Source: an uncultured Planctomycetaceae bacterium (lineage in GTDB: Bacteria; Planctomycetota; Planctomycetia; Planctomycetales; Planctomycetaceae). From it: DNA of 64,000 nucleotides. A program made the translations under genes and the position numbers. Below the pieces are notes generated by a model, which was given only the letters and a program-made list of their open reading frames with translations, did not search any database and was not told the origin of the DNA. The stretch covers positions 192,001-256,000 of the forward strand of contig CAWFAK010000012.1 of the NCBI GenBank assembly GCA_963813715.1, in the 5' to 3' direction. This document shows, piece by piece, positions 18,910 to 34,152 of the stretch (position 1 is its first letter; each line of letters starts with the position of its first letter).

Positions 18910-19083
18910 TCCGAATCCTCGCTAAGAACCTGGGGAGGTGTTTGATCCCTCTCCCATTCAGATGGGAGAAGCAGTGCCCTCGTCACCATTCCCTCCCTCC
19001 CTCCCTCCCTCGCCTGGAGGATTCGGGCGTATTGCAGCACGGGCTTGGCACGCCGTAATCTGGCAGGATATTCGAGGTTTTGC

Positions 19084-21680
19084 ATGGAAGATCCCAGCCG
19101 TCCCGCGAGCGAGCTGCCACCGTCACCGGCCGCAACGGTGATCGGTAATGATCCGTCTCAGCTAATCGGGGCCGTCATTGGGCCCTACAAGCTCATCGAG
19201 CAAATCGGACAAGGAGGATTTGGCCTCGTTTTCGTTGCCGAGCAGCAGAAGCCTGTCAAACGCCGGGTGGCCCTCAAGGTCATCAAACCGGGGATGGACA
19301 CGCATGACGTGATCAAGCGCTTCGAGGCCGAACGGCAAGCGCTGGCTCTCATGGACCATCCCAACATTGCGCGGGTCCTCGATGCCGGCGCGACAGCTTC
19401 GGGTCGACCGTATTTTGTGATGGAGCTGGTCCACGGCATCCCCATCACGGATTACTGCGACAAGAATCGATTGACCTTGCGCCAGCGCCTCGAGCTGTTC
19501 GTATCCGTTTGCCAGGCCGTTCAGCACGCCCACCAGAAAGGGATCATTCACCGCGACATCAAACCGTCGAACGTGCTGGTGACGGTGCACGATCGTCGGC
19601 CGCTGGTGAAAGTGATCGACTTCGGCGTCGCCAAAGCGCTCCATCAACCGCTGACCGACAAGACGATTTACACGCGTTTTGCGCAGATGGTGGGCACGCC
19701 GCTCTACATGAGCCCCGAGCAGGCGGAGATGACCGGCCTCGACATCGACACGCGCAGCGACATCTATTCGCTGGGGGTGCTCTTGTACGAGCTTTTAACG
19801 GGGACCACCCCATTTGACAGGAAGCGACTGTCGCAGGTCGCCTACGACGAGCTGATCCGCATTATTCGCGACGAAGAACCACCTCGGCCGAGCACGCGGC
19901 TTTCTCGATCGACAGAAACGCTCTCCGCTGTCGCAGCGCACGCAGGACCGAACCGGCGCGGCTCTCGAGGATGTTCCGCGGAGACCTCGACTGGATCACG
20001 ATGAAGGCGCTCGAGAAGGATCGCACGCGGCGCTACGAGACAGCCAATGGTCTGGCGCGAGACGTCGAGCGCGTACTTGCGCGAGGAGCCGGTGGAAGCA
20101 GGTCCGCCTGGAGCCCGCTATCGACTGAGAAAACTGGCCCGGAAGCACCGAACGGCCCTAGGTGTGGTCGGGCTATTTGTGGCGCTCCTGTTAATCTCAG
20201 TCGGCGTGAGCACCTGGCAAGCGGTTCGCGCGAGGAGGGCCGAACGGGAAGCCGTGGCGGAGCGCGACCGAGCTGAGGCTAGCTTCAAGATGGCCCGCGA
20301 TACGGTGGACCGCTTCTTCACTCAAGTCGCTGAAAGCCCAAAGCTCAAGGCGCAGGGGATGGAGAGATTCCGGAGGGACCTGCTTGCCAACGCCAAGGAC
20401 TTTTATGAGCGTTCTATCAAGGAGCAGCTCGATGCGGCAGAGGTGCGCGAGGATCTGGGGCTGGCCCATATTCGGCTGGCCAAGATTCACCAGGTGCTCG
20501 GAGAGTATGCAACGGCACAGGCTCTGTCGGAGAAGGCCATCGAGCTCTTAAGCGAGCTGGCGCGGCGCATCCGGAGGTCGCCGACTATCAGCGCGATTTG
20601 GCTGCCAGTCAATTTGAGCTGGGCTCTGTCTATTTCGACACCGGCAACTTGGACAAGGAGGCTGCCGCGTATCAGCAGGCGCTGCCCATTCAGGTAAAAT
20701 TGTGTAACGACCATCCGGAAGTGGCGGAGTATCGTCGTGCTCTGGCGACCACCCAAGACGCTTTAGGATACTTGGATCTCCGTGCCCGGCGCCTGGAAGG
20801 AGCTCAGGCTAGCCTGGAACAGGCCTTGGTGACGTGGTCCGAACTCGCGAGTGACAGCTCACATCTCCCTGAAGACAGGTATGGGCTTGCGAGGGTGCAA
20901 CAACGGCTCGGCGGGACGTATGGACGGCGGGGCCAGACGGAGAAGTCGGAAGCAAGACTGAAGGAAGCAGCGAGCACGTATCAAGGTTTGGTTCGTGACT
21001 ACCCCGACGTCCCTGAGTACCGTCATTCCCTTGCCAGTACCTACACGGAACTGGGTGCTCTTTATATCAACAATACGCGGCAACTCCAAAATGCGGACGC
21101 AGCTCATCAGAAAGCACTGCAAATTCTTGAGAAGCTGGCTGAGGAGCATCCGGATGTGTTGGAATTTACTTACGACGTGGGTCATTGCTACCACAACCTC
21201 GCGGTGGGCGAGCGGCTACAGGGCCGCTCGGACGCTGCGCTGGCCAGTCTCGACAAGGCAATCAGGATCCTGGAGCATGTCGTTAACAGGGGCTATGGTC
21301 GTGCCCGATCGGATCTCCTCAACGGACGGATTTTGCACGCCTCCGTGCTGACTGTCCGGGGCGCCCACGCGCAGGCGATTGATGAAGTCACTGAGTTAGC
21401 CAGGCAGAACGGTTTAAGCGCGGCCAACTTGTACAACATCGGCTGCGTCTTTGCCCTATCATCGGCCGCTGCCGAGAACGACACGAAACTTTCTGCCGCA
21501 GATCGAACCAGGGTAAAATCGCAATATGCCGACCGTGCCATGGAGTTTTTGCACAAGGCGGTTGCCAAAGGCTTTCAAAACGCTGCCGAGCTGAAAAGCG
21601 ATCCGGACTTTGCTCCGCTACGCTCGCGCGAGGACTTTCAAAAGCTGCTGCGAGAGGTGGAGCAGAAGAACAAGAACTAG
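19084..21680 (+). CDS. Serine/threonine protein kinase with C-terminal TPR repeats (frameshifts near 19945, 20070, 20565)
   Basis: [47 protein letters not shown] tail ending YNIGC…[17 protein letters not shown]; spread over several reading frames. Confidence 0.9.
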
Positions 21681-26143: not shown

Positions 26144-26335
26144 GGCGAGCGCCTGGGTGACTCCCTCGATCTCTACGCACCCAGGCCGATCGCCAGCGGA
26201 CGCGTCATCCTGACGACCAAGAGTCTTCAGGCCGGCCGGCATACGATCCGGTTCGAAATCGTGGGCAAGAATCCAAAGTCGACAGGGACCGACTTCGGCG
26301 TCGATTGCTGCGAGGTCGCTCCGCCGGACCGCTGA
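26144..26335 (+). pseudogene. Start-less remnant of a beta-sandwich C-terminal domain
   Basis: GERLGDSLDLYAPRPIASGRVILTTKSLQAGRHTIRFEIVGKNPKSTGTDFGVDC…*; in-frame stop just upstream and no start codon. Confidence 0.6.
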
Positions 26336-26380
26336 GGTCGAAGAAGAGATCGTGAGCATATCAGAGCTCTCGCCGAGTGC

Positions 26381-27576
26381 TCAGCTCGCCGACCGTTCGC
26401 CTGCGCCTCGAAGCACCTCGGCGACCTCTGCGTGTCCCTTTCCTATCGCAAGGTCAAGCGGCGTTTGACCGTCACCGTTTGTCAGCAGCGGGTTAGCTCC
26501 CTGATCGAGCAACAGTCGCACGATCTGAGCGTGGTTGTTGCCGGCCGCCTCGTGTAGAGGGCTGGTCTTTCCGTCCATGACGTTGAGCAGACTTGGATCT
26601 TCGGCAAGGCGGGCACGGACCAGAAAGTCAAAGCCCCAGTTGGCCGCAACGCAAATGCCAAAAGATCGCGGCTTGCAGCCCAGAACTGGGTCACGCACTT
26701 CCGGATCGGCCCCGGCCTGCTCGAGCAGGGCAATCACCGTGCGCGAGCCGCCGAAGTACGCCCAGTGCAGGGGCGTCGCTCCCAAGAAGGCCCGAAACGA
26801 GAGATCCGGCCGCTTCTCCAAAAGGAATCGCACGACGTCGGCCTGGCCGTTGCGAGAGGCGATGTAAAGCGCGTCGGAAAGTTGATCCCGACCCGACAAC
26901 GGCGGACACGGCAAACGCGTTCCATCGGGTGCAAAACGACTGCTGCCGGTGCGCGATGCGCCGGGAACGAGTTCGCCTGCATCATCGAAGTGGGCTTGAA
27001 CCTCTTCCAGCGCGCCGATTCCCGCCGCGCAAAAGACGTCGGCCTCTGCTCCCAGCGCCACGAGAGTGCGGGCGCATTCGGGCGCGTTGCAGGTCACGGC
27101 CCAGGAGACGGCCGTGTGACCCGACTTCCCGATTTTGGCATCAACGTCGGCACCATAAGCGACCAGCACCGTCGCCAATCGCGGGTCGTTGCACTGCGCG
27201 GCCACATGCAGCGGCGTTTGACCTTCGGAACCGTAGGCCGCCGCCAGAGCCGGGCGGCGACTGAGCAGTTCGGTGACGGCCAGTTCTTCGCCCGCCTCGA
27301 CTGCCGACAGGAGTTGCACGAGATCGGGATCGTCGGGCGACGCGCCGCTGCGGCACGCCCTCGAACTCCGCGGAGCACCGCATCGAGCTTCTCGCGAACC
27401 AGTTCGACGTGGGCCTTGAGTTTGCGCCAGCTCGCGAAGCCGAATTCGCGGGCGACCTCAAGCTGCACGTCACTGAGCCGAGCGGTCGGATTAGTCGCGC
27501 GCAGCGCGTCGAGGCGGTCTTTGCTGAGTTTCTTGAGCCACTCGAGACTGGCGCGGAGGGGGAGCGAGCGAGACAT
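26381..27576 (-). CDS. Ankyrin-repeat protein with N-terminal LPxRxSLEWLKK…AREFGFASWRKLK domain (frameshift near 27320-27360)
   Basis: TPLHVAA, TPLHWA, SPLHEAA, TPLDLA ankyrin motifs; N-terminal domain in an adjacent frame; GAAAGAAGG SD. Confidence 0.88.
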
Positions 27577-27584
27577 GCGGATAA

Positions 27585-27702
27585 CCTTCTTTCAACTGCG
27601 CCCGGCGTCCGCGATCACGGGCAGAAAGAAGGCCATCAGAATTTGGCAGGCTGACGAGTGGGTTCAACCCTGCACGCGGACCGTCGGCCGCTCGTCACGG
27701 CC
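27585..27702 (-). ncRNA. Candidate structured cis-regulatory leader RNA
   Basis: Two hairpins (27585-27632 and 27652-27697) with complementary loops GTCCGCG (27607-13) and CGCGGAC (27675-81); the proximal stem pairs the SD. Confidence 0.55.
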
Positions 27703-27751
27703 AAAATCCACTCTAAACGCGGACCACGGGTCGAAGCAACAGTGCGGTCGG

Positions 27752-28472
27752 TTAGCCCCGCGTCGAGACGTACTTTGCTCGCACCTCGGGGGCAAGCTGC
27801 TCCACCGCATTGCGCAGCATGGGCCGGGGCATCGTGCCGGCGTGGGCCTTGAGGAACCGCAAGAGCCGCTTCCGGTCCTTTTTGCCGGCGTCGCGAATCC
27901 ACGAGCCCACCGCTTTCTGGACCAACTCGTGTTCGTCATGAACCAGCAACTCGGCGATTCGGAACGTGTCTTCGACATCGCCCTGCCGGATGAAATAGTA
28001 GGTACTGACGATCGCGGTCCGGCGCTCCAGGGGTTGGCGGAACGCGCGAGCTGGTATAAGACGTCACGCGGCTGGTCGGAGAGGTAGCCGCCAACGACAT
28101 AGGGCGCCGCGCGATCGACCAGGTCCCAGTTGTTGATTCGATCATGACGCCGGAGGTACAGATCGAAGAGGGCCCTGCGATGCTCCGGCGAAATGCGTTT
28201 GCGCGGGCTTGGAAATCCATAATGCTCACTGCCCCCATCCGGACTTCGTAGTACGGGCTCCCGAGGAGCCGATCGATGTCAGCGAGCGGCATGTCGATGA
28301 AGAGCTTCGCCACGGCGAAAATCTTGCCATGGCTCACGCCAAGGACCTTGTTGCCGCGGGAGTGGCCATTCGGGTCCGCGCGGAAGAAACGCGACACATC
28401 GGCAACAACGGCCGGATCGGCCAGGTCCTCGAGGGCCGCGACAAACTGCTGACGCAGCTTCGGTGTCGGCAT
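27752..28472 (-). CDS. DNA alkylation repair protein, AlkD-like (frameshifts near 28200 and 28025)
   Basis: YEVRMGAVSIMDFQAR, RHDRINNWDLVDRAAP, LVHDEHELVQKAVGSWIRDAGK, MPRPMLRNAVE. Confidence 0.85.
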
Positions 28473-28929
28473 GTTCGAATTGCTCCGGGATAATATGGCG
28501 AGCGTCGTGTGGGCTAATTTCCTTGCTCGCGCGGCTTCCGGCACTCGAATCCGCTCGACACCCGAAATAGGACCAGATGGAGACTTACAGCACTCTATGC
28601 GGCTGTCCCGGTCAACCGAAGTCGGAACACTGCAGAGGCCGAAGTCGACCAAGAAACTCTTCGTTCACCGTCGGGCTGCTGTCGGGGCCCGGTTCACGGG
28701 TGGCACGAGTGAACTGGTGTGGAGTGTGAGAATTGACGTGCGTTGGGTTAAGCGGCCCTCGACGCCGAGCGCGGCGTCGAGGGGTCGCGACTTTCCCGCG
28801 GTCACACGAACCGGCGGCAATGCGATTGCACGCGGACAGCTGGCTTAAGCCCCGTATCCATTCGGCGCCTCGCCGGCCGATAGTTGATCGGAGTCAAACC
28901 ACAACCGCCGCCGGTGGGCGAGAGGCGGC

Positions 28930-29511: not shown

Positions 29512-31623
29512 TCACTTGTTTTGCACGCGCTGGCACTGCTCGACGAGCGAATCCATGTCGAAATAGGGTTGTTCGCCGATTGCCTGCCAGCGCCTGCGAC
29601 CTGCCGAATCAATCACAAACAGACCGTGGAGCGGATGATCCGCAAAGCAACCATATTGCTTGAACACGGAGCGACTTTCGTCGGCCAGGAGCAGCAAGGC
29701 GGACTGCTGGCTTCGTGGCTCATCCGAGAGCGCCGTGATCAATGAATTCTTTGAGTCGGTGCCAATCGCCACGACCGACATGCCGGCCGCTTCCAGCGCC
29801 GACTTACGCGCAGAAATCAGCCGCAGCTGCTCGACGCAATGCGGGCACCCTTTCCCACGGTAAAACGCCAGGACGAGCGGGCGTCCCTTGAACTCCGCAA
29901 GAGTGTGCCATTTGCCGTCGGCGCGGGCAGCCGCCAGGTCGCTGCTTGTCCCAGGTCGGGAAGCGGCTGCCGCTGAGCAACCACTTTCGGCTGTGGCGCG
30001 GTGTTATAACATTTCGCCAGGATCCGAAACATCTCCATCATGCCATAGTCTTCGTGGTCGAGTTTGTGGCAGTGAAGCACGGTTTTGCCGGGATAATCCG
30101 CGAACTGGGTGCGGAAGCAAATCGTGTAGTTCTGTGGCAGAAGGATGGTGTCCTTCCAGACCGGTTGCTTGAGTGTTTCGTTGTTATTTGAGTCCTTGAT
30201 CGAAAGAACTTGAAAAGGATTGACGTGAACGTGAAAGGGATGGTTGTCATTGGAAGAATGCAACGTCCATTCTTCCGCGGTATCGACCTGTGGGCACTGA
30301 TCCGTGCGCACCGGATCGAATAGCAGGCCATTGATCGTCCATGTCGTCGCGGAAAGGCCGGTGAGCTCGAACTTTCTGGTCCCGACGAACGTGTTTATCG
30401 GGGCGTAGGGAGCCAACCCGGCTAATTCGATTTTTGCGGAAAAAGCCTTGATTCCTGCGCTTTCCGCAGACGTGAATCCTCGCCAGCACGGCGGCAGGTT
30501 CATCGCGTCCTCGGCGAAGCGCCTTGTCGGCGGTCGAGGCAAGGTCATAGACCAGGTAGTCCCCCGTATGCTCCGGCGCTTTTACCAAGACATCCGATCG
30601 ATAACCCGGAGCCAAGGTGATCGGCTCCCTGGGATAGATGTCACCAAAGGCAATTCCATCGTTGGCAATTTCGTTGAAGAACGGGACTGGCTGGTCGGTG
30701 AGTGTCCTCAGTGCCAGATCGATTCGCTCTCCGATCCCCGCGTGAATCAAACGCCACCGCTGCACTTCGCAAGGGGCCATTTCGATCACGGGTTGCAACA
30801 GCCCGTTAATCGTCGTCTGACGTCCGGGTTCCGGCCAGCTTTGAATCGCGTTGGTCGATTCCACCGTTCCCGGATTTCCGTCGGAAAATGGAATCTGTTG
30901 AAACAACAGAGTGTGCTCTGTCGCGGCTTTGATTTCGGGAACTTCGTCCAAACCGCCTTCGACAATCAGCGCACCTGCCATCCCGCTACAGACCTGGACG
31001 GCCACTGCCATATGCTTATGCGGGTGGTACCAATGTGTGCCGGGCGGATGCTTCGGACCGATCGTGATGGAGTAATCCTGCCGCCCGCGCGGCGGAACCT
31101 GGATAAACGGATTGTCGCTGTTGTCCTCTGGTGAAACGTGCAAGCCATGGGTATGCAGATTGGTCGTGTTGTATCCGTGCGGAATTAAAGGAGGCGTCGG
31201 CTTCGGTTCATCCAACATGTCGTTGATCAACCGGATTGCGAGCGTGTCCCCTGGGCGAACTCGGAACGTCGGCCCCACGAGCCCACCGTTGTACGACCGT
31301 AACTTCACGACATGGCCGCCGATGGTGTTGTAGGCGTAATTGACCACGAGCGTCGTCTGCAAAATCCCGTCTCCCGAGTGAACCACGGGCGGATCTCGAA
31401 ACGGAACCTGGCTGGCGATCGCCCCGGACTTCGACGCGCGTTCGTAATCTTGGATAAAGGTCAAGGTCCTCACCGGTGGGGCGACCGGCACGTGATCGTC
31501 GGACACCTGGCCCTGTCGTGGCACGCCCGAGGCAGCCGTCATCGCATCTTCGGCGGCTGACTTCGAACCCAAACCGATGAGAAGAGCTAGTGCGACAGCG
31601 AATTTGGCGTTTTGTGTTAGCAC
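29512..31623 (-). CDS. Multicopper oxidase, probably fused to a C-terminal AhpC/TSA-type redoxin domain (frameshifts near 30445 and 29922)
   Basis: NLHTHGLH, HWYHPHKH, HPFHVHVNPF, LHCHKLDHEDYGMM; then WRLP-ADGKWHTLAEFKGRPLVLAFYRGKGCPHCVEQL. Confidence 0.85.
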
Positions 31624-31752
31624 AGATTCCTCTCACGTAATGACTCGAGAAGGCAATGGCAAAGGATGCAATAAGCACAGCCCCAATTGTGGGTGTGGCT
31701 CATTTATTTCACCGTCCGCGACGAACAATTCAATAACCTAAACAGACTATTC

Positions 31753-31791
31753 ACCATTGACAACAAAAGTTGTCAATGGTACCGTCGTCTC
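31753..31791 (+). promoter_or_regulatory. Sigma70-type promoter overlapped by a perfect 12-4-12 palindromic operator
   Basis: TTGACA 31757-62, 17 nt spacer, TG-G-TACCGT 31780-85; palindrome ACCATTGACAAC-AAAA-GTTGTCAATGGT. Confidence 0.8.
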
Positions 31792-32394
31792 ATGCTCGAC
31801 ATCCAAGTCATCGACGATCCGGCGACGGCGACGGTGGCCTTGGAGCCGGTGCGGAGTCGACTCCTCTCCGAGCTCGTCGCACCCGCGTCGGCGGCAACAT
31901 TGGCCACGCGGGTCGGCTTGGCTCGGCAGAAGGTCAACTACCATCTGCACGCGCTGGAGGCGCACGGGCTGGTGCGGCTGGCCCAGGAACGCAAGTGGGG
32001 CGGGCTGACGGAACGGCTGCTCGTGGCGACGGCGGCTTCCTACGTCGTTTCGCCGAGCGCCTTGGGCCCGGTCGCCGTTGATCCGAATCGGGAAGCCGAT
32101 CGGCTGTCCGCGAGCTATCTCATTGCCCTGGGCGCACGGGTCGTCCGCGAAGTGGGTGACCTCGTTCGCCGTGCGAAAGAGGCGGGCAAACGTCTGGCGA
32201 CCCTGGCGGTGGATACCGAAGTTCGCTTTCGGTCGGCGACGGACCGGGCGGCTTTCAGCAACGAACTCACCGAAGCCATCACGAAACTCGTCTCGAAGTA
32301 TCACGACGAATCTGCCCCCGGCGGCCGCGCGCATCGCCTGGTGGTTGTGGCACACCCTCTCCCGCAGAAATCCAATCCCAAGGAACCATCATGA
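31792..32394 (+). CDS. ArsR-like winged HTH transcriptional regulator
   Basis: ALEPVRSRLLSEL…SAATLATRVGLARQKVNYHLHALEAHGLV. Confidence 0.9.
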   Translation: MLDIQVIDDPATATVALEPVRSRLLSELVAPASAATLATRVGLARQKVNYHLHALEAHGLVRLAQERKWGGLTERLLVATAASYVVSPSALGPVAVDPNREADRLSASYLIALGARVVREVGDLVRRAKEAGKRLATLAVDTEVRFRSATDRAAFSNELTEAITKLVSKYHDESAPGGRAHRLVVVAHPLPQKSNPKEPS

Positions 32395-32544
32395 GCGTTA
32401 AGAAAGAAGCCTCCGGGCGCCGTTCAGTCCAGGTCGAAGTCGAGGTCCCCGGCACGCCGGAAGAAGTCGGGCAGACCATCGCTACCGGGCCGGGGATTTC
32501 GTCCTGGTTCGTGCCGGCCGAGTTCGAGATGCGCGACGGAAAGC
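32338..32544 (+). repeat. ~205 bp direct repeat, copy 1 (regulator 3' end plus SRPBCC 5' end)
   Basis: Aligns with 33103-33311, with scattered mostly third-position differences. Confidence 0.92.
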
Positions 32545-33059
32545 TCGCACTCTACCTTCGAGCGCTTACCGGCGTCGCCCTTCTGATCCTGCTGGCGTCG
32601 GCGCGGGCTCAGGAACCGCCGAAGCCGGGAAAGGAACACGACCATTTGAAGCGGCTGGTGGGCACCTGGAATGCAGAGACGGAGAGCGGCAAGGGGACGA
32701 TGACCTACAAGATGGGTCTGGGAGGGCTGTGGCTGATTGGAGACTTCGAAGGCGAATTCGGCGGCATGAAGTTCCAGGGCAAGTTCCTGGATACTTACGA
32801 CCCGGCGACGAAGAAGTACCGGAGCATTAGCGTGGATTCCTTCTCCACAGCGCCCAGGATCATGGAAGGCAACTTGGACAAGGACAAGAAAGTCATGACC
32901 ATGACGGGAGAAGGCCCCGGGCAAGAAGGCAAGACGGCCAAGTTCAAGTCGATCACCGAGATCAAAGACGCCGATACCGTCAACTTCAGCCTGTTCATGG
33001 TGGACGAGGACGGCAAGGAACAGCCGACGGTACGGATCACGTATAAGCGGAAGAACTGA
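32391..33059 (+). CDS. Chimeric ORF: about 50 aa SRPBCC N-terminus fused to a DUF1579-like exported protein
   Basis: MSVKKEASGRRSVQVEVEV…SSWFVP, then internal signal peptide ALTGVALLILLASARAQ and PKPGKEHDHLKRLVGTW…YDPATKKY…VDS. Confidence 0.8.
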   Translation: MSVKKEASGRRSVQVEVEVPGTPEEVGQTIATGPGISSWFVPAEFEMRDGKLALYLRALTGVALLILLASARAQEPPKPGKEHDHLKRLVGTWNAETESGKGTMTYKMGLGGLWLIGDFEGEFGGMKFQGKFLDTYDPATKKYRSISVDSFSTAPRIMEGNLDKDKKVMTMTGEGPGQEGKTAKFKSITEIKDADTVNFSLFMVDEDGKEQPTVRITYKRKN

Positions 33060-33102
33060 GACCGCGCGACGGCGTTCCACTCTCCCCGGTGTTCAGGGGA
33101 GA

Positions 33103-33311
33103 CTGGTGGTTTGTGGCACACCCTCTCCCGCAGAACTCCGATCCCAAGGAACCATCATGAGCGTGAAGAAAGAAGCCTCCGGACGCCGTTCCGTCCAGGT
33201 CGAAGTCGAGGTCCCCGGCACGCCGGAGGAAGTCTGGCAGGCCATCGCCACCGGGCCGGGGATTTCGTCCTGGTTCGTGCCGGCTGAGTTCGAGGATGCG
33301 CGACGGAAAGC
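33103..33311 (+). repeat. ~205 bp direct repeat, copy 2
   Basis: Aligns with 32338-32544; preceded by hairpin TCTCCCC-GGTGTTCA-GGGGAGA. Confidence 0.92.
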
Positions 33312-33984
33312 CCGTCGCGGTGAAATTGAACTTCGGTCCGGGCATGGAGACCAGCTTCCCCCGTGACGGGCTGGGATCCGCCGCGAAAGTGGGCTGCGGA
33401 GTCCGCTGGCTGGGTCCCTGGCTCGCCGCCGATCGCGGACGAGTGGACCGTTGAAGCGCGCGGAGGAGGCATCTGCGTCGTCCGCATTGTCCATAGCCTT
33501 TTCGCCAGCACGGACGACTGGGACAACCAGCTGGAAGGCACCGAATCCGGATGGCCTGCTTTTTTGCGTACCCTGCGGATCTATCTCACGCACTTCCGCG
33601 GCCAACGTTCGGCGACGATGAAGTGGATGGCCAACGTCGCGGGCACGGAAGCGGAGGCTTGGAAAACGTTCACTGCAGCATTGGGGGTGAAAGGCGTGAA
33701 CGTCGGGCAGCGTTGGGCGGCGCCCGCGGGTGTCCCGGCGCTCAGCGGCGTGGCGGAGTACGTCAGCCAGAGCCCGTACGACGTCCTGCTGCGGGTCGAC
33801 AAGCCGGGGCCGGGCGTAGCCGCCCTGGGCGCCTTCAGCATGGGCGGCCAGAGCATGGTTGCGCTGGGCTTCTACCTTTACGGCGATCAGGCGGCCGGCA
33901 ACCGTCGCCCACGAGACACCACTCTGGGAAGCGTGGATTCAGAAACACTTCCCGACGCCGACGGAGCCGGGCAAGAGCGAGTGA
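33157..33984 (+). CDS. SRPBCC (START/Aha1) domain protein (frameshifts near 33295 and 33900)
   Basis: VPGTPEEVWQAIATGPGISSWF…WDPPRK…VRIVHSLFASTDDWDNQLEGTESGWP…; ends WEAWIQKHFPTPTEPGKSE*. Confidence 0.85.
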
Positions 33985-34152
33985 GCCGCGTGGTTCGTTT
34001 ACGGCGGTTTCTTGACGGCAGACCGAGTCGAGATCACTGTGGCCTGAACTGAATAGGTCTGAACTCAACAACAGTGTCGGCATCCCTAGAGTCAGCGGCT
34101 GGTGGCGGTCTGCGTTCGACCGCTTCCCTTCCGCCATTTCTCGGAGTCAATC

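Follow-up and report, generated by a model that had tools for sequence, protein, structure and literature searches.

What sets the translation of an ankyrin gene whose ribosome-binding site is folded into the RNA that precedes it? This question is raised by a locus in a 64,000-nucleotide stretch of DNA from an uncultured Planctomycetaceae bacterium (hereafter the window), where a leader of ~118 nt, at 27702-27585 on the reverse strand, starts just past a putative -10 element. A sequence-only reading of the locus had proposed a kissing-loop translational switch, with the small basic N-terminal domain of the encoded protein as an autoregulatory RNA-binding partner and the ankyrin repeats as sensor. 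That the leader is a conserved cis-regulatory RNA which pairs with the Shine-Dalgarno (SD) sequence, as that reading held, is supported by covariation across homologous leaders. The leader recurs ahead of one small uncharacterized domain in many soil bacteria, and what it tracks is this 58-aa N-terminal domain, not the ankyrin repeats.

Architecture of the leader

The leader comprises five stems, two pseudoknots and an anti-SD/SD stem (Table 1). Read along the transcript, TAGAGT (27715-10) is followed by P0 with UGACGAG in its loop, P2 around GUCCGC, and P3; then come CUCGUCA, a linker, CCUUCUUUC, P5 with GCGGAC in its loop, GAAAGAAGG, 8 nt, and the ATG at 27576. Every leader string quoted in the sequence-only reading was found in its place upon direct check of the sequence, and the paired strands are exact complements. 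Its second hairpin (TGACGAG/CTCGTCA) does pair, but a stem had been overlooked, namely P0 (GGCCG/CGGCC), and because the loop of P0 is the TGACGAG strand itself, this "hairpin" is in fact a pseudoknot.

Table 1. Positions of the leader elements and of the parts of the gene in the window.
Feature	Position	Strand	Evidence or remark
Putative -10 promoter element, TAGAGT	27710..27715	-	7 nt before P0; TAnnnT conserved upstream of P0 in homologues
P0 hairpin (GGCCG 27702-27698 / CGGCC 27690-27686)	27686..27702	-	Strand-swap control
P0 loop, the 5' strand of PK1	27697-27691	-	Sequence
Pseudoknot PK1 (UGACGAG 27697-27691 with CUCGUCA 27658-27652)	27652..27697	-	Covariation
P2 mini-stem (AC 27684-83 / GU 27675-74), holding the 5' kissing loop	27674..27684	-	Covariation
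5' kissing loop, GUCCGC	27681-27676	-	Presented by P2
P3 hairpin (GGGU/ACCC)	27660..27670	-	Covariation
3' hairpin (P4 + P5)	27585..27632	-	P4 and P5 pairs covary
P4, anti-SD CCUUCUUUC with SD GAAAGAAGG	27632-27624 / 27593-27585	-	Covariation
P5, inner stem (GCCCG/CGGGC)	27622-27618 / 27604-27600	-	Covariation
3' kissing loop, GCGGAC (6 bp with 27681-27676)	27607..27612	-	132-133 of 133 paired per position
N-terminal three-helix domain (~58 aa; 12 K/R, 7 D/E)	27397..27576	-	AlphaFold2, profile
Ankyrin-repeat part of the gene	26381..27345	-	Pfam Ank matches; frame differs from that of the N-terminal domain in the assembly

The MFE fold of the leader region (-63.4 kcal/mol, z -2.5) is equaled by 3 of 200 shuffles, and in it the SD, 8 nt 5' of the ATG, is fully paired, just as had been claimed. 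Three separate perfect helices of at least 7 bp are present in the leader, compared with 0.42 in base shuffles, a count reached in 1% of 2000 such shuffles.

A strict sigma-70 promoter scan did not call TAGAGT (27710..27715) as a -10 site. Among homologues, TAnnnT lies 4-11 nt 5' of P0 in 103 of 114, as opposed to 3-6 in four control windows, and a P0 of 4 bp is found in 119 of 133, as opposed to 35.7 +/- 4.7 upon swapping 3' strands between sequences. Because P0 is conserved and TAnnnT stands a short way before it, the RNA most likely begins the transcript, which would likely start at or just before P0.

The gene itself had been taken as a single one, at 26381-27576; in the assembly it is two open reading frames, of 160 and 312 aa. 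The closest named relative, in an uncultured Planctomycetaceae genome (L001), has an N-terminal domain that is 100% identical and is intact at 400 aa, and it is because the window copy lacks 7 bases of L001, at 27339-27373, that it reads as two frames. An assembly error is a plausible cause, since other genes in the window are likewise split between frames. These apparently include what we take to be a Ser/Thr-kinase-like gene (19045-21680, forward strand), a multicopper-oxidase-like gene (29817-31623, reverse strand) and two SRPBCC-like genes (32391-34052, forward strand), and such split genes suggest that small indels are frequent in this assembly. A phage collection matched only the ankyrin part of L001 (10 records), and no holder of the RNA was listed among sequencing runs.

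Covariation across homologous leaders

Loci were collected via the protein, 23 from named genomes and 80 from metagenomes, the latter being the best 80 of 582 confirmed. In genome samples, matches were present in at least 15 of 401 genomes of the window's own phylum, at least 16 of 151 from the phylum of an Acidobacteriota genome, at least 11 of 251 from that of an Actinomycetota genome, and at least 15 of 301 from that of an Ensifer genome, all of these counts being minima, as scoring was confined to some of the candidates in each genome. Alignment A2 (64 rows) has 89% of its cells paired and double changes in 29 of 32 pairs; its kissing-helix figures are biased, because the descriptor with which its rows were picked demanded complementary hexamers. 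The covariance model R1, which holds the nested stems only and leaves both pseudoknots unmodelled, found 75 matches across 87 sources and another 79 across 80, and some bias remains because the R1 base profile was built from the biased seed. The set used for covariation, 154 rows less 10 weak or partial ones, comprises 133 non-redundant leaders with a mean identity of 53%, for which all 6903 column pairs were compared with 40 tree-based null alignments. With the homologue-built model, the RNA is found in Planctomycetota, Acidobacteriota, Actinomycetota and Pseudomonadota.

The pairings noted from the window alone proved to be conserved in these 133 leaders. Fifteen of the top 17 covarying pairs are predicted pairs of P2, P3, PK1, P4, P5 and the kissing helix, and the remaining two connect a P0 base to a P2 pair, which may reflect a tertiary contact or shared ancestry. 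PK1, which is absent from the covariance model, places three pairs among the top ten (E 0 to 0.05 over 6903 pairs). The strongest covarying pair of all belongs to P2 (131 rows: CG 62, AU 47, UA 9, GC 3, unpaired 10). Three of the four P3 pairs covary, with 96.5% of P3 cells paired in A2, and pairs of P4 and P5 covary in the 133-row test as well.

The kissing helix had been described as a 7-nt loop-loop helix. Six of these pairs stand, each being paired in 132-133 of 133 homologues, while the seventh, paired in only 41 of 64 rows of A2 and 95 of 133 homologues, was rejected; its G instead closes the 2-bp stem P2. Double changes in the helix run from G-C to A-U in 10 cases and from U-A to C-G in 7 (at least 9 and at least 5 changes on the tree, respectively). 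Because the helix is nearly invariant, its two variable pairs, which form in 132 of 133 rows, attain no better than E 0.5 and 2.95 when all column pairs are scanned. Near-invariant bases are also seen outside the stems, such as the A that precedes P3 (99%).

Might such conservation belong to a DNA site, or to a leader that hitchhiked on duplications of gene starts, with no function of the RNA at all? Leader and domain do adjoin, and helix 2-turn-helix 3 of the domain presumably resembles a helix-turn-helix, with no confirmation from fold searches. Against this, seven helices show compensatory changes, judged relative to a tree-based null, in leaders from four phyla whose mean identity is 53%, and G-U pairs are tolerated in the helices; an explanation devoid of RNA function becomes scarcely credible.

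Occlusion of the SD is widely predicted among the homologues. In a model without pseudoknots, predicted SD pairing exceeds 0.5 in 112 of 132 homologues and is 0.999 in the window. The same model yielded no conserved alternative fold that frees the SD among the 132, and the term "switch" in the sequence-only reading is not borne out by these leaders. The one candidate alternative considered, pairing of the anti-SD with the 5' purine tract, was rejected as unconserved, with more than one expected pair in just 30 of 132 (again in the model without pseudoknots).

The N-terminal domain and its association with the RNA

The AlphaFold2 model of the N-terminal domain (pLDDT 91) consists of helices 9-26, 32-42 and 48-57. 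Its K/R residues are conserved at profile positions 13, 17, 52 and 63, beside an invariant W and a near-invariant F and S; the underlying alignment (A1) tolerates a variable internal insertion, and 9714 clusters at 50% identity are hit by its profile. Nearly all of the top 150 matches have the domain at or near the N-terminus. Pfam has no family of its own for it, giving weak single-member matches to OST-HTH (E 0.008) and HTH_16 (E 0.26), and the protein Atlas returned only unnamed clusters at 0.88. Foldseek found no match at E 0.001 and a VIA fold search reached a best Z of 4.5, below Z 5, outcomes that are uninformative for so small a bundle of helices; the domain is assigned no function by any solved structure or fold match. 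One PDB sequence match (9s82 "JUBO2", E 0.026) was discounted as resembling an idealised helical sequence.

Going from domain to RNA, an upstream leader is present for 135 of the 139 domains scoring at least 50 bits and for 11 of 21 weaker or partial ones, 6 of 166 rows being left out of the count because their upstream DNA was short. Of the four strong misses, two give weak scores once filters are switched off (L151, 15.2 bits; L139, 12.2 bits), and L017 and L148 lack a scoring leader despite a good domain. Going from RNA to domain, 41 of 44 whole-genome RNA matches, many of them training loci, have the domain directly downstream, the other three being one contig end and two matches near E 0.001. 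At the ten loci first reached via the RNA, with downstream DNA and a strong score (L175, L182-184, L186, L187, L189, L191, L194, L195), the domain is found in all ten.

The window's own genome holds three leader copies, each ahead of a domain gene, and one weak partial match inside another gene. The two further copies, at G000:C8:450388-450521 (reverse strand) and C8:589498-589627 (forward strand; L175 and L176), each stand before a domain gene, and cross-regulation among these paralogues is possible. An exception to the association is a second RNA copy at L003:3820-3946 (forward strand), just 3' of an intact ankyrin-domain gene and before an M50 peptidase gene that starts with just ~nine domain-like codons; this copy may act as a target in trans, or it may have arisen by recent duplication.

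Partial or rearranged leaders are seen ahead of domain genes at L131:1419-1495, where the 5' part is a variant, and at L157 and L017, where apparently just the 3' hairpin is retained. Divergent leader subclasses with low R1 scores (L145, L146, L173; L151, L152; L166-L168, L171; L169, L243) still have complementary kissing hexamers, and each precedes a diverged form of the domain. Several top domain matches (P0002-P0012 and others) contain two or three copies of the N-terminal domain, an arrangement that could allow multivalent RNA binding.

The C-terminal parts of the 160 loci with DNA fall into 19 unrelated clusters, with 114 members in the ankyrin cluster. For 13 C-terminal representatives, Pfam gave Glyoxalase, Clp_N, DUF3471, TPR/TonB_C, Beta-lactamase, DUF1835 or nothing, and domain partners in the 96 of the best 150 proteins that were scanned include ankyrin, LRR, Clp_N, ClpX zinc finger, FliG_C, FliM, winged HTH and DUF5990. 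Because the identical leader class precedes the domain fused to unrelated C-termini, the sensor role once suggested for the ankyrin repeats is not a general one.

This diversity bears on whether the leader is an orphan riboswitch, whereby the RNA would sense a small molecule or ion and the domain would merely be common to the controlled genes. The size of the leader, its two pseudoknots, the near-invariant bases outside its stems and its SD pairing are all as one would expect of such an element. However, the genes downstream have no common metabolic or transport theme (19 C-terminal clusters, unrelated Pfam families), their products sharing the N-terminal domain only; the conserved bases of the RNA shift in step with the domain subfamily; and the one SD-freeing pairing considered, that of the anti-SD with the purine tract, is seen in just 30 of 132 homologues in the model without pseudoknots. 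We consider a riboswitch unlikely.

The strict one-to-one pairing of RNA and domain, an inferred RNA start at +1, and tertiary structure beyond the need of a simple operator could also be accommodated by a stable ribonucleoprotein that acts elsewhere, as a scaffold, localisation tag or effector-silencing RNA, with SD pairing serving to couple the amounts. The conserved fold, however, extends through the SD to a point 8 nt short of the start codon, there is one RNA copy per gene, and no terminator-like site was found in 26200-28000 of the window, all of which make such a particle distinctly improbable. Still less probable is co-translational control, in which the nascent domain, a stalled ribosome or a shared host factor would open or close the leader without direct domain-RNA binding. 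That almost every one of the top 150 matches has the domain at or near its N-terminus would fit such action in cis, but a predicted folded three-helix unit with a conserved core and a tolerated variable internal insertion is unlike an arrest peptide, and each domain subfamily has its own RNA.

Sister classes and RF02940

No Rfam family matches the window at the gathering threshold; four weak matches over 27500-27800 (MIR164, CRISPR-DR52, fiv_FSE, sR23) were far below their own thresholds and were rejected. RF02940, the COG3860 RNA (gathering threshold 42.5 bits), gave no match in the window, nor any at E up to 10 over 27500-27800. The sequence-only reading nonetheless implied more novelty than the leader has, since part of a sister class is already on record as RF02940, a cis-regulatory orphan with a 54-nt model whose genes have an N-terminus homologous to the window domain via Glyoxalase_8.

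This link is made at the protein level. The window domain is homologous to the N-terminal region of Glyoxalase_8 (PF20066; hhalign 97%, E 2.8e-11) and to the N-terminus of PRK05973 (96.5%). Pfam Glyoxalase_8 weakly matches 12 of 25 domain members, and the window protein gave no match at its curated cut-off of 23.7 bits. Glyoxalase_8 is in turn matched to the COG3860/DUF2087 N-terminus at 96%, and it is through Glyoxalase_8 that the connection runs, the direct profile match between the window domain and the COG3860 N-terminus being weak (8.9%). The COG3860 genes carry RF02940 and DUF2087, whereas the window gene has Ank repeats and no DUF2087.

As in the window RNA, the 5' hairpin loop of RF02940 pairs with a 3' tail and encloses a small hairpin (cf. 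P0/PK1/P3); unlike the window RNA, COG3860 leaders have other conserved bases and no P2 around the 5' kissing strand. The Rfam model ends before the kissing partner and the 3' hairpin. At L231:1975-2130 (reverse strand), L232, L233 and L236-L241, the COG3860 RNA runs ~90 nt past that model. The COG3860 motif reportedly originates from the work of Weinberg et al. in 2017. It is not named in the main text of PMC5737381.

Glyoxalase_8 genes have a leader class that differs from that of the window and is missed by Rfam: ~160 nt upstream of the Glyoxalase_8 match in L219-L230 (Alphaproteobacteria), a double-pseudoknot class without an Rfam match is seen, and all 12 of the 12 fetched loci have the layout of the window leader with different conserved bases. 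In these sister sets, which are small and whose structures were read off the very sequences counted, the Glyoxalase_8 leaders (n=12) show 100% pairing in the kissing helix, where 2 of 6 pairs have changed on both strands, and 90% pairing in PK1, where 4 of 6 have done so. The COG3860 leaders (n=9) have a 7-bp long-range helix, 98% paired and with 4 of 7 pairs double-changed, to the loop of a 3' hairpin that precedes the SD. R1 did not detect the sister classes (best 8.8 bits at a Glyoxalase_8 leader; 10.7 bits at a COG3860 leader).

PRK05973 leaders (L245, L246, L248-L254; 140 nt upstream) have a 3' hairpin before the SD and no Rfam match. The nine share a C-rich 5' strand complementary to the G-rich loop of the 3' hairpin, a pairing that is a lead only, because it is almost invariant and uncounted; their alignments leave aside L247, in which the match start is out of frame, and L255, a near-duplicate of L252.

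The window RNA is best placed as a sister class of the orphan RF02940, outside every Rfam family, and there is a real chance that a new superfamily of RNA-protein cassettes is at hand. In its fullest form, this would be a widespread superfamily of RNA-level one-component regulators, each a portable cassette of a 55-residue, three-helix domain that binds RNA and its cognate leader with two pseudoknots, with at least four matched classes (that of the window, Glyoxalase_8, COG3860 and PRK05973) and thousands of C-terminal fusions, a reading that we hold tentatively, at a little short of an even chance. If true, the dose of the C-terminal domains would be set, or their state reported, by the cassette, the orphan COG3860 RNA would be explained, and a set of orthogonal RNA-protein pairs would be in hand.

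A proposed model for autoregulation

The N-terminal domain has strong indirect support as the putative partner of the RNA, and this role gains from the two-way co-occurrence and from the finding that sister domains have sister RNA classes ahead of them; co-occurrence is by itself no proof of contact, because adjacent DNA is inherited together. We think it probable that the leader is bound by the domain it precedes. The domain would bind the folded leader and so set translation of its own mRNA, with the kissing helix tying the 5' domain of the RNA to the SD hairpin. Promoter, RNA and domain would move together as a single cassette joined to a range of C-terminal domains, and these may in turn modulate the amount of free N-terminal domain.

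Precedent for such an arrangement exists. Aca2 and Aca1, which are HTH proteins, bind RNA motifs in their own 5' UTRs, as described in PMC13551039, and here too a small helical protein is coupled to a conserved 5'-UTR RNA, which in the Aca case blocks ribosome binding. The Aca proteins, in contrast, come from phages and, as HTH regulators, bind promoter DNA as well, whereas the window domain belongs to cellular genomes, has diverse C-terminal fusions, and is a predicted binder. A search of the main text of PMC13551039 for ankyrin, glyoxalase or pseudoknot gave no hit. The main text of PMC11109978 has a category of protein-binding candidates, in which a 5'-UTR motif goes with a protein whose production is probably under its own control; the window RNA is like these, and like ribosomal-protein leaders, in being linked to a probably self-regulating protein, but those leaders precede known nucleic-acid-binding or ribosomal proteins, whereas the window RNA follows an unannotated domain across unrelated fusions. 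The words "ankyrin" and "glyoxalase" are absent from the same main text. In one passage of PMC7113386, DUF2087 is called a proposed nucleic-acid-binding C-terminal domain, with no word there on the RNA described here. Among the papers listed outside the subscription literature, none describes the RNA or the domain; the supplementary motif lists of PMC5737381 and PMC11109978 may contain the motif.

As in an autoregulatory leader, the conserved 5'-UTR structure of the window overlaps the ribosome-binding site, and its association is with one domain exclusively (135/139 and 41/44), apart from the second copy in L003. By analogy, the window RNA would resemble known autoregulatory leaders in its mode of action. 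For the direction of control, analogy with Aca2 (PMC13551039) favors negative feedback, in which binding would clamp the SD-closed fold; this is the likelier direction, to which we give not quite even weight. Release of the SD upon binding seems rather less likely. With the window SD predicted to be 99.9% paired without protein, repression would have little scope unless P4 is strained by the tertiary fold, and, given the very stable P4 of the window copy, binding may instead activate.

A well-supported structured RNA class from four bacterial phyla, absent from Rfam 15, is added here, and an unannotated domain with ~9,700 clusters at 50% identity is given a testable function. The COG3860 RNA gains its missing 3' half and a candidate ligand, the N-terminal domain of its own gene. 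If the classes are mutually specific, they would be natural orthogonal parts for translational control, in which RNA and protein diverge together.

Neighboring genes

Upstream of the leader, at 27664-28652 on the reverse strand, is a gene of the DNA-alkylation-repair family (PF08713), apparently split over more than one reading frame. Within 31687-33366, near-duplicate gene starts (MSVKKEASGRRSVQVEVEVPG) are seen at 32391 and ~33160, the one at 32391 switching into unrelated sequence, and this region looks like a local duplication with an insertion.
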